Shown piece after piece: positions 12,952-62,024 of a DNA stretch of 64,000 bases (positions are counted from its first letter, which is position 1; each line of letters begins with the position of its first letter). The translations under genes and the position numbers were made by a program. This DNA comes from Dipteris shenzhenensis (Eukaryota), in NCBI GenBank assembly GCA_047967505.1, contig CM106538.1. One strand, given 5' to 3'. Under the pieces are notes generated by a model, which ran no database searches, had not been told where the DNA came from, and worked only from the letters and a program-made list of their open reading frames with translations.

Positions 12952-13490
12952 AAGTAGGGTTCCATGGATTTGGAAGCGGAGCAATGTTTGGTGCTACAGC
13001 CCCCGAGCCTGTGGTGTTGTTTGCTACACTAGTACTAGGTGTCTGAGTTTGAGCTTTTGTCCAAGACCCTGTGCTCCCAATAGAGCTGCAAAGGGGTTTG
13101 ATGCCAAGTCATTTCCACCATCAGCTCCAACTATAGCTGCATTAAGGAAAGGTTCTTCCACTGTCTCATACATGCGCCTGAGCATGTTGAATTCTTCAGG
13201 AGAAGCTTCAATGTTACTCATAGCATGATCTGTGTTCCTCATCATTTCTCGCGTGAGCTCAGGGTTCCTAGCTGCATCAAGTGTTTGTCACAATGTAGCC
13301 CGATCATTCAGAATGTGACCCAAATCCAGATTTATGTCGATGATGTCCCTCATTTGTGGATTGCTCATGATCAAATTATGCATAAGATTAGGATTGTTCA
13401 TGAGGCATTGGACTGCTAGCATATTCATCATTTCACGTAGAAGATTGGGATTTTACATTTTGCATCAATTGTTGGGCTTGTTGTTCAGTA
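12952..13490 (-). pseudogene. DSK2: Isolated exon fragment of ubiquilin/DSK2 (STI1-like repeat region)
   Basis: [10 protein letters not shown]...[10 protein letters not shown]...[49 protein letters not shown]...SNPFAALLG...PLPNPW, with an internal stop and frameshift; ends at a GTAAGT donor (12946-12951). Confidence 0.9.
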
Positions 13491-13639
13491 TTTTTCCAAT
13501 CTAAGTTTTCAACAAAGGCCACATCTCTCAGTATGAAAATTTTTAGAGAGGATATTCCTTGCTTTAATCCCAAGATTTGATGCCAAGTGAACCAGTAGGT
13601 TATATTATTTTGCCTTGTTGTAGAGTCCAGTAGTGGACA

Positions 13640-16600
13640 AGGATCCCGCTATCCCTTGCGATCTCAACAGAGATTGCCGGAGACTACAATGTTAGAAGGT
13701 CCAGAGATCACCTCTGGAGCAGTGCTTACATCTCAGATATCTTCCTTGGAGAGGATCAGTGAGGAAGATGTGCCCAATCCTTCTGTAGTAGAAATATATA
13801 AGGCATCTGAAAAAATGAATGGACCAGCAAAGAGTAGCGGTGCAACACATGAGCTTCAAGGTAAAGGTTATGAAATTGTTCAAAATGGTAAAAAATTATT
13901 TATGATATCACATTGATCATGTGATGATATTGGGTATTGACATTGATCATTGAATGATTTTCTAAAATTTGACATTTGCTTGAAGGTAAAGAGGCAGGAG
14001 ATATCCGTCTTCCTAGAGATCTAAGTAACCGATATGGAAAGAGCATTAAGGTGCACTTGTTACAGGAGGTCATGGACACACTCGTTGTCAAGAAAGATAT
14101 AGAGGTGCCTCTGATATCCTTGTGCAGACATGTCATAAACAAGGCCATCAGGACAGTGGGAGACAACATAGTTATCTTGGTAGAGATATTTGACTAGCAG
14201 GGGTACATTGATAGCAGGGGTGACTTCTTGGTGTCACTTGGGATCCAGGTGAGCCGGAGCTGACTTGGATAGTTGAGGATTCAGGCCCAACGTGGGAATT
14301 GGTAAACCATGAATTTGAGAATGAATTGGATAAGAGACCAGATTGGGTCAAGCTAAAGGGAAAGAAATTTTTGGTTTGGGATGGAAACCATTGACTCAAG
14401 GCATGGTTAGGGAGGATAAACATAGGTATGTTCTTTTGCATTTAGTGTATGTAAATTTTATTTATAGCATGTGTTTTTTTTTTCCCTTTTAAATATTGAG
14501 TGAACTTGCTTTACAGTGTATTCAAATATGATGGATCGGCACATTCGAGTTTGGTGCAAGTTCTTGCAGTTCGAGCGTACATAGGAGGGTGAGGTGTTGT
14601 TAGCACTAGCCGAGGTCAATAGGTATGAATCCACTATCATGCTTACTGTTATGTTTTGAATTTCTAGTTTTTTGGTGTCTTAAAATGGTCGTCTAACAAA
14701 TTGCATGTCCATGTGTAGGCTTGCATGTGTACATGTCTCGCACACTATTGCACATGACATATTAATGATGTAGAAATTTGGCACTGCAAACAAAGAGACA
14801 CTCATGCACTATTTTGCAGCGGAGGACAAAAGATTGGTTGAGGGTATGTTGTTGAAGGAGAGGAGTGGCCCCTTAAAGGCATGGTACAACTTGCTCATGT
14901 CTATACTTGGACAGTTTGTTTTTAGGGTGAGTGCCTTAAAGATGTTGGTTGATTACTTGGTAATGGTTTCTAGATTATGTTATGTCAAAAAAGTTGTGGT
15001 TCTTTTTTTCATAGGATGAGTACCAAAAGAAGTACCGGGAAGAGATGGACAAAACGGACACTTCAACCCTTTCACTGGAGGAGTGTGAGAAGGTACAAGG
15101 CAAGGCATTGTAGAAGGCAGAGGAGAAGGTGAGGAGTAGAGGATATCTTTTGCAATCGATTGCCAATCCAACGAATGGTGAGGGATTTTTTAGCATTTGG
15201 TTCTCCATAAACTGGGAGCAGAAAGGAAAGATCGTAACAGAGGACAAGCTTATCATGCTTGGTGCATCGAAACTATCTGCAGAGAGGTTTCTCTTCCATC
15301 TCTTTTGTTTATTTCTTTGTGTTGAATGCTTCAAGTTGTTGGAAGACGGGTTTGATTAATGGATTTTCTAATGGCAAGAAAAAAGAGGTCTTGAGAGTGC
15401 TTGCAGTAGATACAAACGTGCAGATGGAGCTAGGCATGCCACATGACAATAAGGAGTGGAGGAGATACATTGCAAGGGAGACATATTGGTCTCAAATTAT
15501 TGAAAAGGCATGCGAGATGATAGGATAGATGAATGTGCTATTTGATGGTCTAGGCATTCAGTTCCCTGGCGATGCAGTGAAGCATTTTAGAGCATGCTGG
15601 CATATTCACTTCTAGAATACGTTTCTGGACTTAGTAGGTGAGAAATTTTGGTTTTGGGAAATCTTTTGTGCAATCAAATATTTGAAATCATGCCAGAACA
15701 TTCTCTCATTAAATGCATGTCAATAACATACCAGGTGATATGAAGAGCTCACTAGATGCAGAGAAGAAGCCGCAAATGGCTATGTCCGTGCGGTGCCTAG
15801 TGTACATGTAATTAATGTTGGATGCTCTAGTCCATACCAAAATTCACATAATAGACTATGATGATGGATTAATAGTTACGTGAATGGCTTGCAGGTGGTT
15901 TTTTAAGTTGGTGGGAGAGTGTGCTCTAAATGAGATGCTAGTGGCGTGCCATGATTGGTTGATAATGAAAGGGCCACTATGCATGTTTCCTGACACATGC
16001 TTGCAGTGCCCTGGTGGATTGTCAGAGTGGGAGATGCAGAGATGCCCCTGGTGGTTGGATTATCCTCTCAACAAGGTTCCCAAATCAGAGAAGGAGCTAT
16101 GCAAAGGTAAATAAGTGTTCCTCTCAGTTCATTGCTTGAGTGTGTCATTCATATTTCAAGGAATGCATTGGAATGAACATCGTTTTTATGCATGGTTTAG
16201 AATTTGTCATGTGGAGGCAAGCACCAGGCAAGAGGACAAGGGACATTGGTTCCACTGCCAAGGAGCTACGTACCAAGAGAAGGAATAATGGGAGAGCATC
16301 GCAAGCAAGCAGAGTGTTGCAATTTGGTACTCTTGTTGAAGGAAGGGGTAGTCAAGAAGATGAGGGGGACAACAGATCTGATGACACGGAATCAGAGAGG
16401 GGAGATGGTAAGGGAACAAAGGTGCCTCCAATATTATGTCCGTAGATGGCATTGCAAGTACTTGATTTTTTCTACTAGCTATAGAGGAGGCTGTATATCA
16501 TAGGCTAGTGAGAGTTAACTGGTTGGATGTGCAGTTATCACTAGTGTATGGAAAGTGGCACCATTATGTATTCAATAGTTTGCAGGTGTATTTTAATCAA

Positions 16601-17560
16601 AATGGTATGAATATGATTATTGATGTGAATGTCTCTATTCTTCAGGTCTCATGTGAAAGTAAGGAATTTTCTTAAGTTGCTGACCCCTCCATCAATCACA
16701 ATTGAAGAGAAAGAAACAAAGGGAGAACAAAGGTAGCTACAAGCATGATGTGGGCAGACTTTCCTACATCACCTCTGGTTGAGCGCATCTCCGAAAAGGA
16801 GATTCTAGAGTGGAACTGGTTAAATATGGGTCTTGTGGAGGCTATTCCAGCATTTGCAAACCATATAATCAAAGATGGGGGGTGGCTCATCCAGTATTTG
16901 CTTGTCATAACATATGTGTTGTGTTCAGTTGGGGGCAATGTATAATGGATTTGAGCTAGTTCACATGCTGATCGTATACCTTGACTGTAGCTACATGCAA
17001 AAGAATCCAAAGGATATGGTATGTGAAATCTCATTTAAATGGTAGTACAGTTTGAAATATGTTTATGCACAAATTTGCAAAAGTTTGACTTGTTTAAGTT
17101 TTCTGGTTACAGATGACCTAGCTAGTCTTGGGTATGTGGCAGTGCCATGGATGCAAGATCCCTATGTACTACAATAACGCCTTAACAGAGAAGAGCCTTG
17201 GCAATGACATATGTGTTAGCCAGTCAAAGTGGATAAGGGAGACAAAAGTCCACACCTTCAAAGGCACACAAGAGGGACGTAATTTCGTGCGAGGTGGTGC
17301 AGAGAGACAACTTGGATTGAGCAGGTGATTCTCATTTGCTGGTTCTTTTTTTAGTCTTTGTGTATGGTTGGTTTGTTAACAATTGAGGATCTTGTTTATA
17401 GGTTTCTCTTGCACACATTCACGTAGGAGGGGGATGTCGTTGTAGATGCATTTGTAGGCATGGGGAACATGGCACGTGCATGTGCGGAGCTAGGTAGACA
17501 TTGTGTCTCTTGAGAAAGATGATGACGTGGTGATTGTTTAGTTGAAGCCCTTACAGTGCA
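13640..17560 (+). pseudogene. Multi-exon gene encoding an N-terminal ParB/Srx-like domain and a C-terminal beta-class N4C/N6A DNA methyltransferase domain; decayed
   Basis: KKFLVWDGNH*LKAW (D at 14380); MMWADFPT...EWN...AFANHIIKDGGWLI (16745-16890); RGGAERQLGLSR|FLLHTFT*EGDVVVDAFVGMGNMARACAELGRHCVS(L)EKD (17290-17520); phase-consistent GT-AG introns 14426-14516, 14623-14718 and 17325-17401. Confidence 0.75.
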
Positions 17561-17705
17561 GGCATCCAGATGCCAAGAGAGGGGAATGATATTTTCCTAT
17601 TTTGTGATGACAATATACATTTTGTGCTCCAGGGCTTTGAACAGATGTTTATGTATTTGAACTTATATTTGTTGAAATCTTATGGACCATTGCTTTGAAC
17701 AGATG

Positions 17706-18099
17706 TTTCATTTTATCTCTATGGTTTGTGTTTTTCACTGTTTGCTAAATCCATTAGGAAAAAGAGAGTAGATATCAATTTTTGAACATAGATATCAGAT
17801 GATGTGTGAGGAATAGAGTAATGAAGTGAACTAGGAAGTTGTAGACTATTGAATGAGCTATGACTTTGTTTTTGTAATCATGTCAATCGGAGACCTAGAG
17901 AGAGAGAGATACATTTCATTTTATCTCTATGGTTTGTGTTTTTCACCATTTGTTTCATTCCATTAGGAAAAAGAGAGTAGATATCAATTTTTAAACATAG
18001 ATATCAGATGATGTGTGAGGAATCATGATATGTGAAGTGAACTAGGAAGTTATAGACCATTGAATGAGCTATGACTTCATTTTTGCAATCATGCCAATC
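17706..18099. repeat. Tandem duplication, ~208-bp period, 2 copies
   Basis: TTTCATTTTATCTCTATGGTTTGTG... at 17706 and 17914. Confidence 0.9.
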
Positions 18100-18152: not shown

Positions 18153-19841
18153 CCCTCATCTAGTAAGAGCTATTAAGTTCTAGATGCAGTTCTAGATGCA
18201 ACCTGTGCCACAATGAAAGAAGGGCAAGAGTGTCTTAAAATTGGATTTAGACACGCATGAGCACATCTTGGGGTGTCTTGAAGTGGTGGACGAGGACAAC
18301 TGAGATAGTACTAAGAAAATGTATGTAGTCTCATTGCAAGGAAACAATATGTCAACTTGTCCTACAAAATGGAATTTGTATTTGAGATTGCTTATTTTTA
18401 GTATTGTTTTTTTAAATCCTATGCTAGTTTTTAGTATATCCCAACAACCATCGCACTGGTTTTCCATAACGAATCCACACATCCTGCAAATCCATTCATC
18501 TTGTAATGATAGAAGCAAACCACCACACTGGTGATTGTTAATATCCTAGTGCAAACTAACCACCGTGCTAGCGATAACTTATCCTGCACTACTACCGTGC
18601 TATCCCTTCACTACTACCATGCTATCCTAAAATTTGTTGCACATTGCTATACTAAAACAGTGCCCTTTAGACTATTTATCATTTCATTAACTGTTAGATT
18701 TCATCCCATGCTTGTTTTTAGTATATCCCAACAACCACCGCGCTGGTTTCCCATAACAAATCCACACATCCTACAAATCCATTCATCTTGTAATAATAAA
18801 AGCAAATCATCATGTTGGTGGTTATTAATATCTTAATGCAACCAACCACTGCACTAGCCCTAGCTTATTCTGCACTAATCATGTACTAGACTACCATCCT
18901 ATCCCTACACTACTGCCACGCTATCCTTAAAAATTTTGCATAGCGCTATACTAAATCAGTGCCCTTTAGACTCTTAATTGTTTCGTTAATTGCCATCAGA
19001 TTTTATCCCATTGTGGTTTTTAGTATATCATAACAACCACTGCACTAGTTTCCTATATCAAATCCACACATCCTACAAATCCATTCATCTTGTAATTATA
19101 GAAGCAAACCACTGCGCTGATGGTTGTTGATATCCTAGTGTAACCAACCACCACATTGGTGATAACTTATCCTACATTACTACCGTGCTATCCTACACTA
19201 CTGTCATGCTATCCTAAAATTGGTTGCATAGTGCTAGTGCCCTTTAGACTGTTTATCGTTAACCATTAGATTTCAACCATTGAGCTACTTAAAACATTTA
19301 AGTACTAACATGGAAGCATGTCGATACAAAATTAGGTATTACAAGCACCATGAGAAAGTCCATAAGTCCAGTGGTTGTTGGGATATACTAAAAACAAGGA
19401 TATGATGAAATCTGACGATTAACGAAAAAATAAACAGTCTAAAGGAGACTGTTTTAGTATAGCACTGTGCAACAAATGTTAGGATAGCATGGTAGTATTG
19501 TATGAATAGCACGGTAGTAGTGCAGGATCAGTTATCGTGTGCATGGTGATTGGTTGCTACTAGTATATTAACAGCCACCAGCATGGTGGTTTTCTTCTAT
19601 TATCACAAGATGAATGGATTTGTAGGATGTGTGGATTTGTCATGGGAAACCAGTGCGGTGGTTGTGGAGATATACTAAAAACAAGCATGGGATTTACCAT
19701 TTGGGATTTACAAATACAATTTAATAAAACCAGCACGATGGTTGTTTGGGATATACTAAAAAGAAGCATAGTCTCAAATACAAATTCCATTTTGTAGGAC
19801 AAGTGCATCTGGAACTTAATAGCTCTTACTATAGATGAGAG
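18153..19841. mobile_element. Non-coding foldback-type element built from ~290-310-bp units
   Basis: Terminal inverted repeats CTCATC..TAGTAAGAGCTATTAAGTTC.AGATGCA / TGCATCTGGAACTTAATAGCTCTTACTATAGATGAG; three direct units (~18415, 18701, 19004) followed by inverted units at 19366-19770. Confidence 0.8.
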
Positions 19842-24648: not shown

Positions 24649-26130
24649 TCAGATGGAGATATTGTTGGGGATGCTTGTAAGTGTGAGGCCTTGACCGGAG
24701 GAGGGGTAGAGGAGGGTGTAGGGCACAAAAATGAGACCAACTCGATGGGCAAGCTCAAAGGGGTCCTCCACCTCATTCCTTGCCACCATCTTAGACTGAG
24801 CCATTTCTACCTTCCTCCCAAAGTCGTCAAAAGTAGATAGACCTTCTCATTGCTAGTCCACTTGGGGTCCCCTCTCTTCCCTATGTACTCATCCTCTGAC
24901 AGGTGTTGAAACGATACCTCCCCTACTGCCATTATTAAGGTAGCCTCCCCTTTGGTTGCCAAACTGGTCAAAAAATATTTCTCCGAATCTTTGGACAACT
25001 CCACATGCTCTTTGCTTCCTATCTCTGGAATGAGCTTACGAATAATAGTTGGAGCATTTGGCATGAAACCTGCATAAGCATATTGCCCAAAATTTACAGC
25101 TGCATGATGTCCTGAGGCTAACCATATCACTGTGGATAGTACTTCTTCCAATGCTTCTACTTTATCCATGGCCACCCACTAGCTTGCATTCTTGTGATCT
25201 CCATGTCCAACTTCCTTGATCTCTTTCCACCAATTTTGGAGCTCCTCGTCTGATTTTATAGTTGCATCGCCGGTGTAGTAGATGTCCACATAGACTTTTA
25301 CTCAGGATTCTATTGCCCACCATAGATCTAGTCTGTCCATTGCATACGGATAATCTGGGATGTTCAGCTTCAGAACGTACGGTTCCTTCTCATCTCTCTC
25401 AGCCATTCCCTTGCAATCATTCCAATTGCATCAATGTCGATCTCTTAAAACTTATGAAAATCACTGCTGATAGTACCCAGTGAATAATCTGATGAAATTA
25501 ATGAGACAAAGTTCTTTTGATAAGAAAATAAGACTGTAAATGATTAGAGTAGTCATCATACTAAAATCACTAACCTCTCTCTGTCCTGTCTAAAACATTA
25601 CAAAATCTGCAAGATATCAAGATATCACTACAAAGCCACTAGACCTCAGTACACTAAATAATATTATTAGACGCTTTGTCTCGAAACATAATAAACGGTA
25701 GGCCGCAAAGATACAACCTCTTGATCAAGTCTCGAGGGAGAGATTCTTCATAGAAGCACCAATCCTTGTACAACATGGATGACATTTCCATGCAGTATCT
25801 GCCTAGAGTGAAAGTTTTTTCTATGTAGCCTCCAGCACTAATCAAACTCGCCCCGCCAAAGCATTGATGTGCATTGTATCCTTGTAGTGTAGAGATAGCA
25901 ACACATGAACAAGATGTAGGGCACTCAGCTGTCTATGTGTTACTATGATGAATGGCTCGATGGAGGCATGGGCTCTCAAACTATTATTATACAACAAACA
26001 GTCAAACTTCGTTGACCAAAATGCAACTTAATGTGAAACATATGAGCCGCTAGCATTCAAAACACTTTTGATTCCTTCCACTGCTACAAGAAGCTTTGAT
26101 AAAGAAAAAGGATACTACCAATGGGAGCCA
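24649..26130 (-). pseudogene. LOX: 5'-truncated lipoxygenase pseudogene: last two exons plus a few codons of the preceding exon
   Basis: SHW|LRAHASIEPFII...[11 protein letters not shown]...IWLASGHHAAVNFGQYAYAGFMPNAPT...PYTLLYPSSGQGLTLTSIPNNISI*; exons 25718-25980 and 24649-25410; frameshifts, stops and an apparently mutated acceptor (CAG>CAA at 25411). Confidence 0.95.
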
Positions 26131-35001: not shown

Positions 35002-38000
35002 TGGTATTAGAGCCTGGACTCTAGCAAGAAGATTTGGTAGTGTGTTTTTTGTTTGTGAGTAGATTGTGAGAGATGGCCCAGCCTGCAAAACTGCGAATCC
35101 CACCGTTCATGAAAGTGAAAAGTTGGACGGCTCTAACTATCCACTCTGGAAGTTCAAGATGAAGACCATCCTAAGTGCATACGAGCTTTGGGACACTGCA
35201 ACTAGGGTGGACATGAGTCCGGTTGCGAGATCGGATCCAGCCAATGCAGGACAACAGATAGTACCAATTGCGGATGAGATTCTCACGTGGACAAGAAGAA
35301 ATGCAGATGCACTGTGTTCTATTGTTTGCAGTGTTAGTGATTCTGTCATGGCGTTAATTCAACATGTCACCATAGCAGAGGAGGCATGGACGGTCTTGAA
35401 AATTCAGTACGAGACCATGAATCAAACATGGATTCAGAATCTGGGGACTCAACTCGCGAACGAGAAGTTGTCTGATTGAGTCTGAAGCGGTAGAGAAGTT
35501 CATCACCAAGGTAAAGAATCTGCGTGATCAGATGACTGCGATTGGCATCACCATCACCATCACCAGTGAGAATCTAGCACGAAGGTGCATACGGATTCTC
35601 CCACCAAAGTATGGTGGTCATGTTATGGCATTGAATATGTAGAACATAAATCCACCCCTCAACTTTGAGGATTTCAGTGTGATGCTTCTGGAGGAGGAGA
35701 TGCATCAAAAGATGAGGACTGGAGAAGATTCGGCTTTTTGGACTGGATCAAAGAAAGGTAAGGGTAAGGACTCTGGTAACCCATCTTCTTCTGATGATAA
35801 AAAGAGAAAGAAGAAGATCAAGTGCTTCTATTGCAACAAGGCAGGGCACAAGCAGAATGAGTGCCGAAAGAAGATTGCAGATGGGAAGAACAGAGTAAAG
35901 AAAGAGTCCAGCAACAGTGCACAAGTAGCACCAATAGAGCTGTTCGTGGCAATTGAGGATATTTGCACGGAGGTAGTTCATGTACCTACGGATGAACCTT
36001 GGATCATTGACAGTGGTGCATGGTGCCACATGACTAGTTGGAAGGATTGGTATACCTCTCTACAGCTGGTAGGGAATGACATCCTGGTAGCAGTCGGCAA
36101 TGATGCAAAATGTCCAGCAAAAGGAAAAGGTACAATTTCTCTCAAGTCAGATGGAGTTGTAAAACAGTTGTTTGATGTTCTTTATGTGCCAGATATCAAG
36201 AGGAACTTGTTGTCCATTTCCACGATCATAGATTGGGACCTCAAAGTTCAATTCAATAAGAATGGTGCATAGATCCTGGATCTTTAAGGAAAGGTCATTG
36301 GTAAAGGTACACAGTGCAACAACATTTACGAACTCTTAGCTTTCAGTGCTCGAGCGGATGTGAAGAACACTAAGCTGTGGCATGAGAGGTTTGGTCATCT
36401 AAACCTTAGTTCTTTGAAGGAGATGCATAAAAGTGGAATGATTGCAAACCTACCAGAAATTTCAGATCTGCCCGATGTATGTGAAGCTTGCATGATGGGC
36501 AAGCAGCATCAGCAGCCCTTTCCTAAAGAGGCCAGTAGGGCAAAGGCTCCTCTAGAGCTCATTCACACGGACCTCTGCGGAAATATGGAGACGGAAGCTT
36601 TGGGTGGTTCCTACTAATTCATGACACTGATCGACGACTACAGTATAAGGATATGGATATACTTCCTGAAGACTAAAGACCAGGCTTTTAGTAGGTTCAA
36701 GGAATGGCATGTAATGGTTGAGAAAGAAACGGGGAGGAAGGTGAAGAAGTTGAGATCAGACAGAGGTGGAGAGTTGACATCAACTGATTTTGAAAGTTAC
36801 TGCAAAAGTCACGGAATCAAGAGGCAAAAACCCCCACCACATACATCACAGCAAAATGGAGTAGCAGAATGCAAGATGCGTGTCATCTACGAAATGGGTC
36901 GGAGTATGATGAAAGGGAAAGATTTGCCAAAGACTTTCTGGGTTGAAGCATGTAACACTGCAGTTTACATCCTGAAGGCTATGAATGGGATGACTCCACT
37001 ACAAGCCTTTTCTGGTAAGAAACCTTCAGCTGCACATTTCAGAGTTTTTGGATGTGACTGTTTTGTGCATGTCCCTGATGCTACCAAGACCAACTGGGAA
37101 TGAAAGAGCCGGAAGTGTATTTTCTTGGGCTACAGTGAAGAGGCGAAGGGTTATTATTTCTATAACCCTATTACCAAGAAGGTAATTGTAAGTCGCGATG
37201 TGGTCTTCTCAGAATAGCCACATCAATTGGAGGAGGATGCTTCCTTCCCAGACAACTAGGACCAGAATATCCATCCAATACCACCACCAATAGCAGACTG
37301 AACTCCCCCAATGGTGCTTGGGAGGATTCAAGACAAAGAAGATGAAGAAGAGCCTGCAGAACCACAATGGCAACGGCCATTCCCGAAGTGGGTAAAGCAG
37401 CTTTTGGACGGTAGAGAACCTCCAACCATTGAGGAGGAACCATCTGAACACCGCCGCGGTCCAAGAGATTAGAGGAGCAAAGAAGGGTGCAGGAACAGGT
37501 GGTCAACTATGCTTTGATGACAAAAGTGATCCATGCTGATGAACCCAAGTGTCTTGAAGAGGCACAGGGTGATGATAGGTGGATGGAGGCTATGCAGTTG
37601 GAGTATGGCTCCATAATGAAGAACAACACTTGGGACCTTGTGGATCGACCACCAAAACACAAGGTAATCGGAACCAAGTGGGTGTACAAGACCAAGTATG
37701 AGTCCGACGGCACGTTGGATAAGTACAAGGCTCGGCTCATGGCAAAAGGATTTGCACAGGTACATGGTTTTGATTATCAAGATACTTTTGCTCCCATAGC
37801 TCGACTAACCACAATTTGTAGTGTTTTGGCTTTAGATGCCTAGGGAAGTTGGTCTGTGTTACAGATGGATGTGAAATCCGCCTTTCTGAATGGAGATCTC
37901 AAGGAGGAGGTATACATGGAACAACCACCAGGATTTGAGATCCCCAGTTCAAAAGGTAAAGTTTGCAAACTGAAGAAGGCACTTTACAGGCTGAAACAGG

Positions 38001-38014
38001 CCCCACGAGCATGG

Positions 38015-40651
38015 TGTTGGTAAACTGAAAGGAAAGGAAAGAGTGGACACAAACTTAGAATACTTGCATTATGGAATGAAGAAGAGTGAGGTCCTTAAGT
38101 AGGCACCTCATGCTTGCTCACTGACATCACTGATGACTTCAGAGCTCCACAATCATCTCCTCAATCTGCTCCTAGATTCTCTCAATCATCCTATGTGGCT
38201 CTCCACCACCTAACTGTGCTTATGGGCACCTAACTGTGCCTCTAGCACTCACACATAGAAACCAAGGTGTGCCTGAGGCATACACCTTGAGATATCCCAT
38301 CAAACCCCCCCTCAAGGGAATGCCTCAAGCTATGTCAAGGATACATCTAGTCTCATAGTTTCTCATGCCATCTCATGGTGGTCAAGGATAAATCTATGGC
38401 TAGGTTCTCATGCTAGCAAGGGTTCCCATGGGTGTAAGGTAAACAAAAGGGATACAAAAAGACCTTCCAATGGTTATCTCCCCTGCATGTACATGCACAA
38501 AATGTCTGCAGGAGGTACCATGGAGCAAAACATACACATGGCCTACATCATAAGGTGACCAGAGGTGTTTACAAAACACACAAAACACGAGTAAAACACA
38601 ATAGTTTATTTCATTCATTTTGGAGGACTATCCAGGCTGAGTACCTTGACATAAAAAGAGAGATCTGGAGCATACATAGAGATGTTTTTAAAATGCATAA
38701 TCTTCAAAGGATGCCTCATCTTGTGGAAGCTCATCAACTGAAAGTAGATTAGCATTTTCTGTCTTTGCTTTGGCTCTGCAAAACTTCTCATTATGGTTGT
38801 TCTTGCCACGGTGCTTGCATGGATTAATTTTGAAGCAGTCCTTTGAAAGGTGATTTGTCTTTCCACAGTGATTGCAAGGGGTATACTTGCCCTTCTGGAC
38901 TTTTACATCATAAACAATGTCATTGCCTTTCCTGAGCTCCATATGCCTTTCTTCTTCTTGGAGAGCAGAGATAATACCTTCAAGATTAGGATTAGGAAGA
39001 TTTTTCAAAGTGGTAACTATGTGATCATAATCTTCAGGCATACTCTTAAGTAACACTGCCATAGCATCATTTGGAGTAATAGGAGAATTGATAGAAGCTA
39101 ATTGAGTCATAAGACTCTGCATATAGTTGACATGAGCTGCCAAAGTAGTACCACTAACCATCTTCAATTCAAAGAAAGAGATTTTAAGTGATAATTTAGA
39201 GATGTGAGAGCTAGCACCAAAAATCATGTCAAGCTTCTGCCAAGCTTCTGAAGGAGACTCTAAGTCAGAGATATGGTGAATATAATCATCTCCTAAAGCA
39301 AGAGCAATGATACCATATGCTTTCTCCTCTCTAGCGAGATCCCTTACCGGTCATGTCGGAGTTGAGGATTCTCCAGTAGTGGAGGCTGTAGAAGAAGCGA
39401 TTGGAGTCGGTTTGACAAGTCCCCATAGGTTCTCCCTCATTAATGCAAATTTCACTTTCATCTGCCATGTGTGGAAGCCCTTTCCATTGAACTTCTCTAG
39501 ACTCAATAGGGTATCCATGAGAGGGTCTAACCCAGATATTGGGCAGTGTCTATCTCTCTTAGAAGGCAAAAAATAACTGAAAGACTTGCAAAATATAAGC
39601 ACTTGATGTAGCAAAGACTAGTGACCAATATTCAATCAATGATGCTTCTTCTTACATGCTTCATAGAGGTGGCTAAAATGAATACTTTCCAATCAAAACT
39701 AGGTCTAGCAATTCAAAGAAAAACTGAAGCCACACTTGTACTGATGTTATTGAAAGTTTCAAAAAACTAGAAATGCTAGAATAGCATCTTCTTCAAAAAC
39801 TTGTCAAAACTATCAAAACCAAAAGGCTGAACTTGGAGGGCTTGTAGCTTACTCTTCAGAGCAAAGGAAAAGGGGGTTTTTAAGGCAAAAGAGAGCTATT
39901 ATACCATAGAAGATCCTTTGGGAAGAAGAGGCACAAAAAGGTGTCAGAACTCCATAGCTTGCCTTTCCAATTTTGACTGGTTTTTCTCTGTTTTCAGCTT
40001 GAATAAGCAACCATTGCTGCTCAGATTTCAGCACAGGATATCTCTAGGTATAGAAAATCTACCCCTGAAAGGAATTAGAGGAAGATGAAGTGTGCTAAGA
40101 GAAAACACAGAAGAAGAAATCGACGATTTTCGTGTAATGGCGACAAAACAGGCACGGCTTTCTCAGATTCCTCTCAGCCAGGGGTTCACCCCTTCAAGGT
40201 GGATCTCCAGCAGGAAGGACGTGGGAAATGGCTAAGAACCGGAGGAGAACAAGCTTAAGCAAACTTTGGGAAGAAGAGGGAGAGATGGTGAAGAAGAAGA
40301 TGAAGAAGAAGATGATGATGTGGTAGAAATGGGCTCAAGGGGGATCAAAGGGCTCTGGTACCATGTTGGTAAACTAAAAGGAAAGGAAAGAGTGGACACA
40401 AACTCAGAATACTTGCATTATGGAATGAATAAGAGTGAGGTCCTTAAGTAGGCACCTCATACATGCTCACTGACATCACTGATGACTTCAAAGCTCCACA
40501 ATCATCTCCTCAATCTACTCCTAGATTCTCTCAATCATCCTATGTGGCTCTCCACCACCTAACTGTGCTTATGGGCACCTAACTGTGCCTCTAGCACTCA
40601 CATATAGAAACCAAGGTGTGCCTGAGGCATACACCTTGAGATATCCCATCA
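38015..40651 (-). mobile_element. Gag-only non-autonomous LTR retroelement (TR-GAG-like) nested in the copia RT
   Basis: 288-bp LTRs 38015-38302 and 40364-40651; perfect TSD CATGG; PBS TGGTACCAGAGC (40352-40363); PPT next to 38303; no pol. Confidence 0.95.
38688..39518 (-). pseudogene. gag: Copia-type Gag with two zinc knuckles and a single in-frame stop
   Basis: MDTLLSLEKFNGKGFHTWQMKVKFALMRENLW...LLKSMPEDYDHIVTTL...CNHCGKTNHLSKDC..CKHRGKNNHNEKFC; TGA at 39351-39353. Confidence 0.9.
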
Positions 40652-41746
40652 CATGGTACCAGTGAATTGATGCCTACTTTCTGCAAAACAGGTTCAGGAG
40701 GAGCCCATCTGATGCAAATTTGTATATCTTCAAAGAAGGAGGTAGGTGTATGATCATGGTCCTTTATGTGGATGACCTTGTCATAATAGGGAACCATGAA
40801 GAGAAGATCTCATAGGCGAAGCATTTGCTAGGAAGAGAGTTTGAAATGACAGACCTCGGACTGATGCATTTCTGTTTGGGGATTGAATTTTGGCAGGAGC
40901 CAAAACAGATCTTCATTTCACAGCTAAAGTATGCTGGAGAGATATGAAGGCATTTGGCATGGCTAAGTGCAAGACAGTTGGTACCCCTATGGAGGTTGAC
41001 GCGAAGCTCTCAAACGAGGATTCATCACCACTGGTGGATGAAGCGAAGTACAAAAGGCTTGTGGGTAGCTTGATTTACCTGTGCAACACACGGTTGGACA
41101 TCAGTTTTGTGACTAGTGTACTAAGCAGGTTTTCCAATAAGCCCCGGGAGAACCATTGGAGGGCAGGGATGCAGGTACTCAAATACATCAAAGGCACACT
41201 TGATTATGGCATCACCTATACCAAGGGCAACATCTTGACCAGATTCTGTGACTCGGATTGGGCAGGAGACATGGACAGCAGGAGATCAGTGACAGGGTAC
41301 TGTTTCTGACTTGGATCTGGAGTTGTGTCATGGGTCAGCAAGAAGCAACCTCGAAGTAACCCACAGTTGCTCTTTCTTCTATTGAGGCCGAGTACAAATT
41401 TGCATGCTTTGCTTCTTGCGAGGCAGTGTGGTTGAGGAGGATTTTGGGGGACATGGGTGCAGTGCAGAACAAGCCTACGCAGTTATCATGTGACAATCAA
41501 AGTTGCATGGCGATTGCAAAGAACTCGATGTTCCACGCTCACACAAAACACATTGAGATTCAATATCACTTTGTATGTGAGCTCATCATGGATGGAGAGG
41601 TCGACTTGGTGTACTGTCCAACTACAGAGAATGCTGCGGACATCTTCACGAAGGCTCTTGGAAGAGACTTGCTAGAGAGGCATCTTCATGGACTTGGCAT
41701 TGGGCCAAAAAAGCAAGTTCACTTGCAGGTGGACATTGAGGGGAGG

Positions 41747-42471
41747 TGTTAGATATCAATGCTCCACTCTCATGTAACTATGCAGGAACCAGCTAACTCT
41801 ACTTATAAGGCCCCCATATGAGGAGAAGGCATTTGAGTAGCTCGGTTATCCGGTAGGTCCTGGTTTGGACACTAGATGGGGGCCATGTGTGGCCTGATGG
41901 CTGGAGGGCTTCAGATAGAGTTGGCACACCACCAACTAGGCTACATGCAAGTGCAAGAAGGCATCCCTTGACTGACCCCACTGAGGGTAGATGGAGCATT
42001 TCCCGAGGCAGCCCACTCTCGGGTTGCGGGGCTTGTTTGGAGCCTCAGATGATCCCGGATGGCTCTGGGCTGAACAAAGACCGTAGGTTAGTTGGTCTAT
42101 TTTGCACACCGGTTCTATCGTATGGTCGATGGCCTATTTCAGGACCGACCCCCACCGTTTTGGGTAGACTGGGTCAGTCACCCAATTGAGCCTAATTGAC
42201 TACGATTGGTGGCTATATAAGAGCAAGCCCGTGAAGCCCATTTTATCACTGGCTATAGCAACCCTGATTCCTTAGCATCCAACCTCCGTCTTCTACTATT
42301 TCCAACATGCCATCAAAGCTTCTTTCACAGGAGCACACGGTTGGGAGGCAGCGCCATCTATTGTATCAGTTCTATAGTAATCAAATATTTTATTCTCTAC
42401 TATCTTGTTTTCTCTCTTGCATACAAGATCCTGTTATCTGTTGAGCACAGATGTTATATTATTTTCTTACA
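41747..42471 (+). repeat. 3' LTR of the copia element
   Basis: Direct repeat of 34271-35001. Confidence 0.95.
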
Positions 42472-42889: not shown

Positions 42890-44717
42890 CTAGAGATCAT
42901 AAGGCATGCTATTGTAGAGAGCCTTGTACTCTTCAAGTGATAGCAAGTACAAGTTTCTCTCTCGCTTAATGGATTCTAGTGGAAACTTGATTGACCTTAC
43001 AAGATGGGAATATAATATGACCTCAAGTTTGTGATCAAGAAGCTTGTAGTGGCAGTCACCGTGATGACCATAAAAGAGACCCTTTAAAACAAAGGAGTTT
43101 GTAGCAATTATGTTGCCCCAAGAATCCTGTGTAGCCTTTTGGATCTTCCCCTTAGCTTTGGCACACTTCAAGATGTAGAATTCAATGCCCTCTTCATTTT
43201 CTACCTCTGCATTCACTGCGAAGTGGTCCCCCACACAAAGAGCATCGCTAAGCATTTCATGATGCCATTCAAATAGAGGCCCCTCAATGAGTTCCTCATG
43301 AGTCTCCAAAACACCTACATTGTCAAGAAAAATGATGTGATATTCCCAACTGGGCACATGCTTCGTATTGGTGCAGTGTCCTCAAGACTCTTGAATAGAA
43401 GCATTACAGTAGCACGACAACCTTTTCATAGCTATTTGACTAACAACCCCTTGTGCAGCTCCTCGAATACAATGCATGGATTTTGTTTGTGGCATAGGTT
43501 GACAGTCCCACTATTTAGATCTTTCAATATCTCCTTCCTTAACAACCCAAAACACTCGTGCTACATTTGTCTCCTTAGATGCATAGCTGGATTGATCCCC
43601 ATGAGACAAGTTGGCCCTCCAAAGTTCCACGACATCTCTTACATTTTTTAAGGTGGCTCTATTTGTCTTTAGTTGTGCTCTCTTCACAACATCCCTAGCC
43701 CCATCGTGCTCGCCCTTTACATGTCCATATCTAAAGAAACTCCATGTCATCTTCAAACCCACCAGCTGTTCAAATCTAGAAATGAAATAGAAAGGTCTTC
43801 TAGCCTTGAATTGAGAGGCTGCTCCATCCGACCAAACCCAATGCCTAATCAGTTTCAACCATTGACTGGACAACCAGCTATGATGTAGCATAAAGCAATG
43901 CTAGACAAAGAGGGTGTCGTGCACCTTGTCATCTAAAATGAAAAAACAAAATATCTTCTTCACCTCAGATCCAATATAGACATATGTTATGTGGACAAAA
44001 ATTGTAACCTGGCTGGAGTGCTAGTGCATGGACTAAACCTCGTTTCGCTCCTTAAAAGAATAGGTCTCTGTGAAGTGCACCATTGAAACCACATCTTTAG
44101 AAAACCTCAGCACACACTCTTTGAACTGTTCAACCTGCCACCTGCAAGTGTAATTATGCTTGATGAATATTTTGAGGTGTGCCTTCATCAACTGTATAAG
44201 TTCGTTGCAATACATCTCCTTGCCAATAAGGTCTTTCCTTTGCTTCTTTTTCCCCTACACCATGGTTCCTGTCTCCACATTCTGGAATACCTTCACCATC
44301 ACATTTCTAGAAACGAAATTCATCTCATGTGGGTAGCATGCCATTTTGCATGGGCCACATTTTTTGCAGTCACTCAAAAGACACCCATGATGGTGGTAGT
44401 AGGCTTCAAGAGGTTTGGGACACAACACAGAATTCCAAAGACTACTGACATCCATGCTAGCATGTTGAACAGCTTTGTAGCCACACTACCCTTCACTATT
44501 TCCACATACCTTACAGTCACAGTTGTAGCATGCTCCATGAATCCCAAAACTCTTGGTTGACTACATCCTTCGAAAAACACATTTGCACATGATAAATGTA
44601 GTAGCATGTGTACATGTCCTTCATCTTTCAAATGAAATAGGGCTTTAAGCACTCAAATGGGCATTGTTGAATCTTGATCTCTAGAAAATTTTCCTTGAAT
44701 AGTTGGAAGAACTCAAC
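42890..44717 (-). pseudogene. Sola2-like transposase, copy C, catalytic exon
   Basis: VEFFQLFKENF..IKI..CPFECLKPYFI; HFTETYSFKERNEV*SMH*HSSQVTIFVH; DDKVHDTLFV; HWVWSDGAASQFKARRPFY; WSFFRYGHVKGEHDGARDVVKR; AG acceptor at 44718-44719. Confidence 0.8.
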
Positions 44718-45938: not shown

Positions 45939-47306
45939 CACTACAAGGCATAGGCCCTTTTCCGATGAAAATACCGACGTATTTTACACTAATTTTTTTT
46001 CTTTGACGAGCGTAAAGGTCGTTATTTACATCGTTATAAGCGTCGAAAAAGAACGGTCGCTATATAGCGATGCTAATAAACATCGCTATATAGTGACACT
46101 GGTAAACATCGCTATATAGCAATGATTAAATGAACTTTAAAAAAACATTAGTGGGGCTAAACAGGGCCACAACAAGCGCTGTTTTGCCCCACTAATGTTT
46201 TTTTTTAGTAATTACAAATAAAGTTTTTTATTACAAAATTTCCCTTGTGAAAAGGGTGATACAAAATCGCTCAAATGAACCGATCGAGCGACAGAAGCAT
46301 ATACATATCAAAGATATACAACATTGTTTGTTACAAAATTACCCTTCCAAAAAGGGTGTGCTTGAGAAGAACTTTTCCTCGAGCATTATGACAACTCAAG
46401 TTCACTTGCTTGTGCACATAGTTGATGAGGTGGCCATTGCAGATACCGTTCATAGTCGGTGGATGTTTTTTCTCGAGTAGTTTATGAAAACTTTAAAGGG
46501 ATTTGTAAGACAAAGAGCAAGACCAGAAGCAAGCATGGGAGAGGGATGGCTTGTGCAAGAGTCATTAGTATATATCACGGAGTTTCTTGCATCCACGGAT
46601 CCTGATATGCTGCAAGCTTGGCATAACAAGGATGATGATTGCATCGTCGTGAGGTTCCCCAAGGAAAAGGGATTGAAAGGAAGATGAGCGAAGAGCAAAT
46701 GGAGAAATTCAATAAGTTTTGTATCCTCAATAGCAAGGAGATGCAGAAGTAGATTGAGAGATATGAAGCGGCCAAAGCAGAAAGAATAAATGCAAGGACG
46801 AGATTTAGAGTAATGTACAGGCAATCACAACCATATCCATGGGATCTGGCTCTTCTCCCCACTCACATGTCACTTGATTGGCTACAACTTGCTCTATGTA
46901 AAGCCAAATGCGATGGAGAGACAATAAACGAGCGTGAGTGAGAGTTATCATCTGGATTTAGGATGCATGTAAGTTTCTTATCTCTTGATGTAATTAAGTA
47001 ATTATTTGTGGCAATATACGCTATAAAATAGATGCATCTTCATTGTTTTAATGATGCTCTTTTATAGTACAAAAAGTACAGTGCATTATGGTCATATGGA
47101 CGACATTTTCACACGGAACGCATCGCTTCAAAGAGAGTCACGTATGATTGTGGAGACTTTAGCAAATGTCACTATATAGCAACGTTTGACTAAAGTCACT
47201 ATATAGCAACCCTTAATGAACCCCAATTCCAATACCAATGATTAGTGCCCCGCGCACACTAAACATTGGTACTTAAGTGTCGCAATAGGATTCGTGTGTA
47301 GTAGTG
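45939..47306 (+). mobile_element. Non-autonomous CACTA deletion derivative (~1.37 kb) inserted in the parent-family transposase
   Basis: CACTACAAGG at 45939 and GTAGTAGTG ending at 47306; perfect 3-bp TSD CAT; subterminal GCTATATAGC repeats; internal TnpD fragment 46355-47155 on plus. Confidence 0.9.
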
Positions 47307-47619
47307 CATCATCCTTGTTATGCCAAGCTTGCGGCATATCAGGATTCGTGGATGCAAGTAACTCCGTGATATATACTAATGACTCTTGGACAAGCCATCC
47401 CTCTGCCATGCTTGCTTCTGGTCTTGCTCTTTGTCTTACAAATCCCTTCAAAGTTTTCATAAACCACTCGAGAAAAAACATCCACTTATTATGAACGGTA
47501 CATATAATGACCACCTCATCAACTATGTGCACAAGCAAGTGCACTTGAGTTGTCATAATGCTCGAGGGAAAGTGCTTCTCAAGCAAGCATATGGCTTCAA
47601 TGGAATCCACCCTCTCTCT

Positions 47620-48100
47620 TTTAAACATATGCTTTCTCTCTTTTTCTCTTATGCATATGCTTTTTCTTATCTTATGGTTATGCTTATGCATGAGCATATG
47701 TCTGCTTCTCCTTCTCCTTCTTCTTTCCTTCTCTTCTTTTTCCCTCTCTTTTTCTCTTCTTTTCATAAGCATATGCCTATGCCTATGCCTATGCTTATGC
47801 TTATGCTTATGCTTATGCATGAGCATATGCTCATATGCTTATGCATAAGCATAAGCATATGCTTTCTCTCTTTTTCTCTTATGCATATGCTTTCTCTCTT
47901 TTTTCTCTTATGCATATTTGGTTCTTTTACCCTCTTTCAATCTCTTTTTCCCTTTTCTTTCTCTTCTTTTTCCCTCTCCTTCTCTAATGCTTCTCCTTCT
48001 CGTTTGCTTCTCTTATGCTTCTCCTTCTCTTATGCATATGCTTTCCACTTCTTACCCGCTCTTGTTTTTTGTTTTTTGTTTTTGTGTTTGTGTCTACGTT
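47620..48100. repeat. (TTATGC)n and CT-rich low-complexity tract inside the CACTA element
   Basis: Runs of CTTATG/CCTATG and TTCTC. Confidence 0.85.
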
Positions 48101-48689
48101 TGTCCAATCCCCCCAAATTAGACATAGGATCACGTCGCACGTCCGACGAGTATGAAAACTCTCGTAGGAGGAGACATCATGATCTCTATTCTTTAGAGGA
48201 CTTTGATTCTACTCAGGTGACACCTCAAGGGCCTACCCCTATGACTTGACTCCTCTTGGACGTTGCACTGGGACTACCCATTCGGGAACTCCTTTGCTCT
48301 AGCAGCCCATGGCTTTGTCGAGAGTCTTGACGAGTTTGTCACACAGATGACCAGTGCAGAGGCAACGAGATTCTTCTCTCTGCTATCCCAGAGGACCTTA
48401 GTAAATCTCTCTCCTACACCGACGGTCGGACGTACCGTCTAACCATCCCCTCTAGCCCCTTTAACATAGGGATCATCACCTGGGCATGCCCATCATAAGG
48501 GAAGGAAGAGTAGGAGGGTTTCTTATGTTGTGCTGACTTAGGAGATGTAGACAGGTTAGCACACTCACATCCCTATAGGTCTCCACTTGGTCCTGAGACC
48601 CAATACCAGTCAGGTCCCTTGCCCTCTCCTACTCCCACTGCTACTCCTCGCTTCAGAAGTGCTCGCACAAACACCACTCGCTCTAACTC

Positions 48690-61000: not shown

Positions 61001-61110
61001 CTTTGCTGATGATGACCTTGTTGTTGCTGATGATTACCACTTCGCTAGAATAATCTACCTTTGCCTCTGCCTCTACCTCTGCTTTTGTCTGAAGCTGTGA
61101 ATGCCAAATC
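58046..61110 (-). mobile_element. Truncated Ty1/copia element of a second family: 3' LTR, RNase H, RT, protease and gag remnants; integrase core deleted
   Basis: LTR ends TCAACA at 58292 next to a PPT; KQPTVSLSSTEAKY, YQLDVKNAFLNG, YGLKQAP; protease WYINSGASSHMT at ~60570-60605; zinc knuckle near 60850-60895; LTR start is approximate. Confidence 0.9.
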
Positions 61111-62024
61111 AACTACAAAACACTGACTCTGAACTGTCTGGTGAAGATAGAAAGTCTCTAGTATATAAACTCAGATCTGTGTTACAAGGCCTATGGCAAA
61201 TGATGCCGGGAATAGCCAAGAGGCTTTACAAGGCTAAAATGATGTGCACGATGCTGTGAGATAGCCAAATAGGCTTTACAATGGTGGCATGTGTGTGTGA
61301 AATCAAATGCTACTTGCCCACTAAATGATTGGCAATGCCTCTGAAAAACTTGGAAGTCTACTCGCTAAACTAATGAACGTCAAGTTTCAGGTAATGTAAT
61401 GATGTGAAACCGTATGTGAGCGTATGGACTATAGGTAGTAGTCGAGAATTTTAGGCATGTCTTAGATTGGCAACTTGGGGAGATTCAAAGAGTCCCCTCT
61501 ATGGCGATCTAGTCTACTCTGATCTAGATCTATACCAACCGTCGATCAATGAAAGAACAACAAATAATTCCTTTTCTTTTGTTCCTTTTAAGTGCTGGGT
61601 CAGATGCATTGATGTAGAGGCAAATGTGCATGAACGAAATGGTTTTGTCGATGAGGCTCAAATGTGAGTGTAACTTACACCAAAGTGTGCATGTGATGTG
61701 ACAAGCACGTAGAGCATGAAAAATCGAGTGACTTTCCTTTTTGGAGCACCCTCAAATTCTTCTTGGATCAAGAGATATGACTTGATCTAGGTGGAGGGGC
61801 AAAAGGAGTGCAAATGGTGCTCAATGATGATGTGTCACTGTGGGTCACATGCAGTGATGATGTGGCATTGTGCCTAGCAAGAGGTGTGTCTATGGAGCAG
61901 TGATGAGGTGGTAGGAGTGGTCACATGAAGTCCCTGTGTAGCACTATGTGTGCATGTAGAGGGTTAGTGTGCCACATGGCACTGATGATGTGGCACTGCT
62001 AACTAGATAGGGTGATGTGGTAGT

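Follow-up and report, generated by a model that had tools for sequence, protein, structure and literature searches.

The stretch of DNA analysed here (hereafter the window) is 64,000 nucleotides of contig CM106538.1 from the Dipteris shenzhenensis assembly GCA_047967505.1. It is plant nuclear DNA of 40% G+C in which Ty1/copia open reading frames (ORFs), a lipoxygenase exon and ubiquilin-like exons accompany the remains of a spliced gene at 13624-17590 on the plus strand. This gene consists of about 11 exons with GT..AG introns between them (Table 1) and joins, in one chain, a probable ParB-like domain to an amino-methyltransferase domain of the N6_N4 type. Such a fusion had been proposed in an earlier reading of the sequence (the original prediction), and all peptide strings quoted there could be located within 13624-17590: KKFLVWDGNH followed by the TGA at 14392-14394, LLALAEVN(R) within 14519-14623, and CVS and LEKD, which are split by a frame change after 17505.

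The exon-intron structure was read from the splice signals in the window and from contigs of related organisms obtained in two public sequencing runs, X1 and X2, for each of which the assignment to RNA or DNA is a guess and whose shares are only 0.09 and 0.07. On positions 13000-18000 we placed 106 X1 and 16 X2 records that are 80-99% identical to the window and together cover the whole locus. Ten GT..AG introns were counted, seven of which are skipped in the relatives' contigs, and one X2 contig (contig 10) bridges 13985-14404 with 15016-15806. As the segments that these contigs skip are bounded by GT..AG, they are spliceosomal introns, removed either in RNA or in RNA-derived retro-copies. 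The three introns proposed originally (14426-14516, 14623-14718 and 17325-17401) have GT..AG ends and consistent phases, and the view that this is a spliced eukaryotic gene and not bacterial DNA holds. In the relatives' contigs the start codon lies in an exon upstream of 13623, the loose end before this position reading ...GAGATG; a search of the window for that exon, with up to 3 mismatches allowed, gave 0 matches.

The reading frame is interrupted by ten premature stops, all in homology-supported frames, and by at least four frame changes, probably with another between exons 8 and 9. Relatives lack the 11 nucleotides (nt) at about 16715 and the single nucleotide at 16891/2 and carry an additional TC after 17505, which are the sites at which the window jumps frame. 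Ten stops rule out an intact gene at this locus, and the original prediction was right to call it a decayed copy: the window holds a non-functional, intron-bearing pseudogene of a multi-copy land-plant family, and no second copy of the gene is present in its 64 kb. Exon 7 is free of lesions and is the most conserved part of the family.

Table 1. Exons, introns and lesions of the pseudogene, in positions of the window
Feature	Position	Strand	Remarks
Exon 1, as present in the window	13624..13860	+	Low-complexity N-terminal coding (SSSGQGSRYPL...THELQ); AG acceptor 13622-13623
Intron 1	13861..13985	+	GT..AG, 125 nt; X1 contig joint 13857/13983 (cut +3)
Exon 2, ParB/DndB-like domain, first part	13986..14425	+	PLISLCRHVINKAIRTV ... 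FLVSL ... KKFLVWDGNH (stop) LKAW
Exon 2 lesions	TAG 14195; frame change near 14240; TGA 14392 (Arg in relatives)	+	
Intron 2	14426..14516	+	GT..AG, 91 nt, phase 1; read directly, phase fits exon 3
Exon 3, ParB-like domain, second part	14517..14622	+	DRHIRVWCKFLQFERT (stop) EGEVLLALAEVN; TAG 14582; matches KKHVRVLAQFIVPTQQEELRLIAALQRLN of metagenome locus L005
Intron 3	14623..14718	+	GT..AG, 96 nt, phase 2; X1 joint 14600/14718, 5 other letters between
Exon 4	14719..14926	+	...SGPLKAWYNLLMSILGQFVFR; homologous to the start of protein P0029; TAG 14771
Intron 4	14927..15014	+	GT..AG, 88 nt; joint in 2 X1 contigs
Exon 5	15015..15286	+	Conserved SIANPxNGxxFF block; TAG 15111; tblastn against P0030 and P0029
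Intron 5	15287..15377	+	91 nt; window ends GT..AA, acceptor ambiguous by 1 nt
Exon 6 (3' end approximate)	15378..15630	+	TAG 15526 and 15613; X1 joint 15629/15887, 7 other letters between
Exon 7 (5' end approximate)	15887..16106	+	CPWW module RW...W...M.P...WE..CPWWLDYP; CPWWLDYP = 16043-16066
Intron 7	16107..16200	+	GT..AG, 94 nt; joint in 3 X1 contigs and 1 X2 contig
Exon 8	16201..16407	+	Charged linker, probably disordered
Intron 8	16408..16645	+	GT..AG, 238 nt; skipped in relatives' contigs
Exon 9, methyltransferase N-terminal half	16646..17018	+	MMWADFPT/ADFPT at motif IV position (DFPT = 16757-16768); EWNW; KDGGWLI (beta-5, 16871-16891)
Exon 9 lesions	11 nt extra at ~16715; 1 nt extra at 16891/2; TAA 16908	+	
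Intron 9	17019..17112	+	GT..AG, 94 nt; joint in both X1 and X2
Exon 10	17113..17324	+	Variable, target-recognition-like region; family motif VRGGAER (17287-17307); TAG 17119
Intron 10	17325..17401	+	GT..AG, 77 nt, phase 2; relatives' donors ~17294 (X2) or ~17319 (X1)
Exon 11, motif X and motif I	17402..17590	+	FLLHTFT (stop) EGDVVVDAFVGMGNMARACAELGRHC, then SLEKDDD; also FLLHTFT (stop) EGDVVVDAFVGMG; DAFVGMG = 17445-17465
Exon 11 lesions	TAG 17424; 2-nt deletion after 17505	+	Frame ends TAG 17539 or TGA 17587

Relatives of this gene were found through its best-preserved part. Word-indexed protein searches with the exon at 16739-16945 and with the DGNH exon returned no relatives, and a phmmer search with the lesion-free CPWW exon (15884-16114) yielded 28 proteins at E<=1e-3, which correspond to 28 clusters at the 50% level; 15 of these were inspected and 24 aligned (P0022, P0024, P0026 and P0027 being left out). 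Most are short fragments with the pattern RW..(20)..W..(10)..M.P..(8)..WE..CPWW(L/I)(D/E)YP, and the four named members among the ten that were looked up are hypothetical proteins of the ferns Adiantum capillus-veneris (one) and A. nelumboides (three). A profile search among longer proteins added two A. nelumboides proteins, P0029 (746 amino acids, aa), whose gene model is fused to a copia gag, and P0030 (620 aa), which brings the distinct family proteins of this fern among the matches to five. P0030 contains LKDKKFLVWDGNHPVKAW in its N-terminal region and CPWWLDYP in its middle, and its C-terminus includes ARLVWADFPTG, YIRGGAER, EGDAIVDIFAGCGG and LGIEND. A tblastn search with P0030 against the window produced eight collinear high-scoring segment pairs from 14039 to 17501 with 29-49% identity; the DGNH exon, the CPWW module and the methyltransferase thus lie in one chain and both domains belong to one gene, as the original prediction had it, and not to separate genes. 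Further members came from six metagenome loci (L001-L006): L001 reads ARLIFADFPTS, VRGGAER and DVFAGCGG, L004 reads FLVWDGNHRLKTW, and L005 reads FFVWEGNHRAASW, continuing as KKHVRVLAQFIVPTQQEELRLIAALQRLN within one exon. L006 has only a weak CPWW-like match in an uninformative context.

The C-terminal domain is homologous to beta-class N6_N4 amino-methyltransferases, the class to which it had been assigned. The last exon (17403-17510, 36 aa with an X at the stop) matches the Pfam family PF01555 (N6_N4_Mtase) with an E-value of 4.4e-7 and 30.5 bits, above the curated gathering cut-off of 26.7 bits, and P0030 matches it with 3.7e-8 and 34 bits; the other window exons, searched singly, had no Pfam match. 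The same exon matches phage DNA methyltransferases in PHROGs (E 2e-6), and its six top matches among PDB sequences, weak as they are (E 0.04-0.27), are beta-class methylases that include 2zie, the rotifer N4CMT (8s9n), CcrM and DpnA. We aligned the C-terminal parts of seven family members (P0030, P0025, P0029, L001, L002, L003 and the window) and compared this alignment by hhalign with 10 phage or prophage ParB-methyltransferase fusions, which gave a probability of 94.7% (E 6e-8), and with 49 of 80 bacterial stand-alone enzymes, kept because their loci span 2600 nt or more and contain a complete ORF, which gave 96.6% (E 6e-10). Motifs X and I form the confident core of these alignments. With relaxed settings they become collinear over about 200 columns, in which ARLVWADFPTG falls on ANLIVTDPPYN or DMILCDLPYG and the TDEGLFV strand on ADGGSIYV or KDNGAIVL, confirming the permuted order with motif IV and beta-5 upstream of motif X and motif I.

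The conserved motifs of this domain differ in how well they have been kept. Motif I and the acidic residue that follows it read DAFVGMG/LEKD in the window and DIFAGCG/IEND or DVFAGCG/LELD in relatives, and align with DPFGGSG/ELD; both are intact across the family, which suggests that binding of S-adenosylmethionine (AdoMet) is retained. VRGGAER occupies the position of HP(T/A)xKP in the bacterial enzymes. At motif IV, canonically (D/N/S)-P-P-(Y/F/W), five of the seven sequences that cover the site read DFPT (window, P0030, P0025, P0020 and L001), L003 reads DFPN and P0029 NFRT: relative to the canonical form, Asp and the second Pro are kept in DFPT and the aromatic residue is gone, being Thr or Asn in all seven. 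Whether DFPT reflects decay or a variant of the family had been left open in the original prediction, and its presence in five of seven sequences settles this in favour of a family trait. The bacterial and phage stand-alone N6_N4 methylases nearest to the plant family (L025-L104 and L023) have DLPY instead of DPPY at this site, which indicates that the first Pro of the motif varies or is dispensable. In characterised amino-methyltransferases such as M.TaqI and Dam-type enzymes, the motif IV aromatic stacks on the flipped base, and its loss in all seven sequences makes catalytic competence, and with it the enzymatic activity of the family, doubtful.

The N-terminal domain is more divergent. All four sequences that could be compared contain GNH, and Arg follows in two of them (DGNHR in L004, EGNHR in L005, DGNH and a stop in the window, DGNHP in P0030). 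The original suggestion that the TGA at 14392 arose from an Arg codon agrees with the two metagenome loci, although not with P0030. This GxxR (box II) lies on a strand-to-helix turn, with its G and R aligned to those of AGHAR and DGQHR. We compared the N-terminal family profile with two target sets, one of 19 ParB_N domains (12 fusion N-termini and 7 bacterial ParB-type domains) and one of 14 DGQHR/DndB-like proteins. Against the ParB_N set, hhalign scored 19.0 (P 0.029, HH probability 1.7%) with a 42-column insertion of the plant family kept and 26.3 (P 0.001, 21%) with it removed; shuffled alignments scored 10.7 ± 2.5 and 11.3 ± 2.6 (maximum of the latter 19.4), and none of 60 reached the real score in either case. 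Against the DGQHR/DndB-like set, with the insertion kept, the score was 24.5 (P 0.006, 6%), which none of 100 shuffles (10.7 ± 1.8) reached. The positive control, ParB_N against DGQHR, scored 46.7. With the insertion removed, the ParB_N alignment begins at the first strand, takes in FLVSL and reaches EGNHR, which it sets against AGHAR; the DGQHR alignment pairs CR..N..VR with G.QR..., FLVSL with IILa and FLVWDGNHR with VIDGQHR. From these profile comparisons we consider it quite probable that the N-terminal domain is a divergent member of the ParB/Srx/DndB superfamily.

Taken as a whole, the locus is likely to be a dead copy of a land-plant family that joins a probable ParB-like domain to an N6_N4 methyltransferase with an unusual motif IV. 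Several observations weigh against this reading. For the N-terminal domain, P0030 has DGNHP in place of DGNHR; Pfam gave no match to a ParB-type family at E<=10 for the window exon, L004 or L005, NCBIfam none apart from a hint of TIGR04172 (DGQHR) at E 0.08, and PHROGs none at E<=1; a PDB search with a seven-row N-terminal profile found neither ParB nor Srx, its matches being at chance level (E 1.6-2); the single-sequence AlphaFold2 model of the L005 domain has a predicted confidence (pLDDT) of 43 and is unusable as a fold; and the HH probabilities are low (1.7-21%), the best score requiring the removal of an insertion that we chose ourselves. In the methyltransferase domain, the matched positions of the PF01555 profile are limited to 159-217 (P0030) or 174-207, and the N-terminal half by itself aligns weakly with phage enzymes (score 16.6, reached by 1 of 60 shuffles). 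In addition, several of the annotations in the family are gene models that are cut short or chimeric, and the intact copies under selection that may exist in the family are candidates only. The original interpretation nevertheless appears largely right; its ParB assignment is moderately supported, keeping a profile-profile signal (P 0.001-0.029, 0 of 220 shuffles) but lacking a match in Pfam or NCBIfam and a usable fold.

On this evidence an intact member of the family would have three parts. The N-terminal domain, most likely of the ParB/Srx/DndB fold, would comprise a CR..N..R strand and helix, an inserted helix, the FLVWDGNHR strand and a further helix; it would be followed by a middle region of about 230 aa with the family-specific SIANPxNGxxFF and WE..CPWWLDYP blocks and by the C-terminal permuted (beta-class) N6_N4 amino-methyltransferase domain. 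The origin of the family would lie in an amino-methyltransferase gene of phages or bacteria that acquired introns. Its ParB-like domain may serve as a DNA tether, possibly a nucleotide-dependent one, and its methyltransferase domain would still bind AdoMet. With Thr in place of the base-stacking aromatic, intact members may either methylate weakly or in an altered way, or bind AdoMet without catalysis. The copy in the window would have no function.

We weighed several other explanations for these observations. According to the first, the family is carried as an accessory (cargo) gene by a large DNA transposon, similar to the Ectocarpus element Sola1-1_Ec32, whose product binds and perhaps marks its own element, and the window holds a dead fragment of it. 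The same two-domain architecture is described for algal transposons in the available text of one report (PMC12477816), and related ParB and N6-methylase accessory genes for Plavaka elements in that of another (10.1101/2025.02.11.637652). Copies of the family are numerous and diverged (28 clusters at the 50% level, five distinct proteins in one fern), the 106 X1 contigs cover 5 kb at 80-99% identity, and many copies are broken, as in the window, or have gene models fused to copia gag, as in P0029. A high-depth X1 contig moreover joins 13725 to 17661 and retains both ends of the locus but not the 3.9 kb between them, in the manner of internally deleted elements. However, no terminal inverted or direct repeats bracket 13.6-17.9 kb, and no transposase domain was found within 25 kb of the gene, although this concerns a single window in which an old, eroded element is possible; the nearest transposase-associated ORF encodes DUF4218 and lies 30 kb away behind a copia insertion (47242-47835, minus strand). 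The 64-kb window also lacks a second copy, and a conserved host gene, ubiquilin-like, flanks the locus on the left. The original prediction called this copy probably transposon-borne, but neither terminal repeats nor a transposase bracket the gene in this window; transposon carriage is a serious possibility, if one that falls somewhat short of an even chance.

The contig that joins 13725 to 17661 is 1246 nt long and has a depth of 1457. It connects 13623-13725 to 17661-17888 with four other letters between them, and the joint has no GT..AG ends; the contig may stem from a copy that lost its interior, from an unusual isoform or from another gene.

A second explanation sees in the family ordinary host genes, domesticated after horizontal transfer, with intact members acting as writers of N6-methyladenine (6mA) or N4-methylcytosine (4mC) and the window as a dead paralogue. 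The intron-less contigs of relatives indicate that the family is transcribed now or was transcribed when retro-copies formed. Moreover, motif I, the acidic residue of LExD, the Asp of motif IV, PxWN, DEGFLV and VRGGAER are kept among paralogues that are 30-45% identical, and the bacterial relatives with DLPY show that motif IV can do without its first Pro. These points are countered by the Thr or Asn that replaces the motif IV aromatic in 7 of 7 sequences, in view of its stacking role, by the missing Pro of HPxxKP, where the family has GGAER, and by DFPT itself, which differs from the (T)SPPY motif of the DN4MT1 and N4CMT writers, TSPPY being the form given for DN4MT1 in the available text of its source (10.1101/2021.02.12.428880). 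As writer activity and expression are here predictions from sequence, we regard this explanation as rather unlikely.

A third explanation accepts the methyltransferase and denies the ParB-like domain: DGNH(R) would be a chance resemblance in a novel plant domain fused to the enzyme. The silence of the curated ParB, DndB and Srx profiles and hhalign probabilities of at most 21% fit this view, as do the results of an ESM Atlas feature search, in which only 5 of the 10 best named matches share a family or clan and ParB_N occurs in no more than 11% of one cluster. That search provides leads only, namely hypothetical Streptophyta clusters (0.93 and 0.90), phage clusters with PF01555 with or without ParB_N (0.83) and, for the N-terminal region, DUF3723, ParB_N and DUF6551. 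A chance resemblance is, however, hard to reconcile with two independent target sets that share one alignment register between the first strand and GxxR, and with scores that lie 3 to 8 standard deviations above the shuffles and were reached by 0 of 220 of them, while five unrelated alignment pairs scored 12.0-16.2. In the AlphaFold2 model of the L005 domain, whose confidence is low (pLDDT 43), the order of helices and strands is that of the ParB fold plus one inserted helix; the second exon of the domain extends the pattern with a strand and then a helix that ends in N; and the TIGR04172 hint at E 0.08 points the same way. A domain unrelated to ParB thus seems improbable. Finally, the introns rule out bacterial contamination, and contamination by bacterial or phage DNA or a recent unspliced insertion, suggested by the nearest non-plant similarity being to phage and bacterial methylases, is scarcely conceivable given the ten introns with GT..AG ends, seven of them absent from contigs of relatives, the plant-like base composition (40% G+C), the ubiquilin-like, lipoxygenase and copia flanks and an identity to phage enzymes of only 21-32% over about 100 residues.

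The surroundings of the pseudogene contain host genes and repeats of several kinds. To its left lie two exons of a ubiquilin/DSK2-like host gene (13027-13452, minus strand; PF23195, E 5.8e-15 and 3.7e-4) that runs toward the pseudogene from the opposite strand and is matched by X1 and X2 contigs with about 95% identity; the exon next upstream appears as a loose end in contigs of relatives, and a search of the window that tolerated up to 3 mismatches did not recover it. Directly after the pseudogene follows a tandem duplication of a unit of about 208 bp (17706-18099), the copies of which, 17706-17888 and 17914-18099, are 89% identical, and then a foldback-like structure (18161-19831) with nested inverted arms, among them those at 18355-18387 and 19772-19804 (100% identical) and at 18413-18738 and 19371-19696 (86%). 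The arms enclose direct subrepeats of about 290-300 bp, and the structure may be a miniature inverted-repeat transposable element or a foldback element. A lipoxygenase exon (24810-25178, minus strand; PF00305, E 4e-38) belongs to a host lipoxygenase gene or a fragment of one. Ty1/copia-type ORFs with Pol_BBD, rve and RVT_2 domains occupy 35063-41752 (plus strand) and 59384-63702 (minus strand), with a Retrotran_gag_2 domain at 38691-39350 on the strand opposite to the copia ORFs; as their frames are broken, they are old nested insertions. Two adjacent ORFs at 42890-43900 (minus strand; 163 and 129 aa, one with WSDGAASQFK) have no Pfam match and could be what is left of an unclassified transposon protein. 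At 47242-48249, the ORF with DUF4218 (E 9e-19), a domain linked to plant CACTA-type transposases, adjoins a His/Lys- and Arg/Glu-rich stretch encoded by a microsatellite-like repeat.

Because the locus is a relic, it is of value only as a pointer to its family. That an expressed, spliced fern-type family derived from a phage-type ParB-methyltransferase still performs AdoMet-dependent DNA modification, with DFPT supporting or retargeting it, we regard as unlikely. If it were so, the family might mark its own mobile DNA or act in gametes, and it would be the third independent eukaryotic recruitment of a beta-class N6_N4 enzyme, after the rotifer N4CMT and the Marchantia DN4MT1, and the first in vascular plants. 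In genomes that are very large and rich in repeats, its members are candidates for 6mA or 4mC writers or for a pseudo-enzyme that binds AdoMet, and the conserved DFPT offers a natural experiment on the requirements of motif IV. A term search of the literature found no paper describing the fern-type family. The rarity in eukaryotes that the original prediction had stressed calls for some qualification, the same architecture having already been reported, in the accessible text of PMC12477816, from algal transposons. The accessible text of PMC4738411 states that N6A-methyltransferases are few in land plants and that enzymes of the phage ParB-terminase locus are the source of some eukaryotic clades.

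Among the systems described so far, the phage and prophage fusions of ParB_N and N6_N4 domains (a 427-aa frame in L112 and 18 IMG/VR relatives) share the order of the plant family, a GxxR domain followed by a permuted methyltransferase in which motif IV precedes motifs X and I and motif I and its acidic residue are kept (hhalign 94.7% for the methyltransferase). As outlined in the available part of a recent preprint (10.1101/2025.10.10.680097), phage ParB-CTPase folds are often fused to N6_N4 methyltransferases, and the common eukaryotic representative is sulfiredoxin; PMC4738411 treats this class as the phage ParB-terminase locus. The phage fusions are about 415 aa long with a linker of 60-80 aa and have canonical DPPY and HPTxKP motifs, whereas the plant family has a middle region of about 230 aa with ANPxNG and CPWW, the 42-column insertion in the ParB-like domain, DFPT and GGAER, and its numerous diverged copies are nuclear and carry spliceosomal introns. 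In profile-profile comparison the highest match (96.6%, E 6e-10) is to stand-alone phage and Bacillota enzymes of the type of gp68 of Geobacillus phage vB_GthS_PT9.1 (L023 and L025-L104), which share with the plant family an L(I/V)KT(Y/F)(T/S)xEGD block before motif I and a motif IV without the double Pro (DLPY); these enzymes differ in their length of about 255 aa, in the absence of ParB-like and CPWW parts and in keeping the aromatic Tyr.

Three eukaryotic systems come close, as far as the available portions of their sources describe them. In Ectocarpus, the transposon Sola1-1_Ec32 encodes a 1104-aa accessory protein with a ParB-like and an N4C/N6A methyltransferase domain, and accessory proteins with ParB-like and N4/N6 methyltransferase domains are reported from transposons of brown, red and green algae (PMC12477816); red-algal Plavaka elements have separate ParB-like and N6-methylase accessory genes (10.1101/2025.02.11.637652). 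Compared by description, the Sola1-1_Ec32 type resembles our family as a eukaryotic nuclear combination of a ParB-like domain and a prokaryote-type amino-methyltransferase that is multi-copy and repeat-associated. The algal protein, however, is encoded within a delimited element of 21.5 kb in which a transposase lies opposite to it, in contrast to the land-plant locus, where neither element borders nor a transposase were found. The bdelloid N4CMT (PDB 8s9n; PMC8885841, PMC10406627) is likewise a horizontally acquired, intron-bearing eukaryotic beta-class N6_N4 methyltransferase, with which the C-terminal exon of the window aligns weakly (E 0.097). It differs in being a single-copy allelic pair with a C-terminal chromodomain, proven 4mC activity and no ParB-like domain, and is stated in the accessible text of its source to have no eukaryotic homologues; a Pfam scan of P0030 found no chromodomain or other domain besides PF01555. 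Marchantia DN4MT1a/b (10.1101/2021.02.12.428880), again compared by description, is a land-plant amino-methyltransferase of the prokaryotic beta-class type and, in the literature consulted, the only functional plant case described; it has TSPPY, is sperm-specific and has demonstrated 4mC activity, whereas the fern-type family combines DFPT with the ParB-like and CPWW parts. While the architecture itself is already known from phages and algal transposons, its extension to vascular plants is new, as are the CPWW module and the conservation of DFPT.

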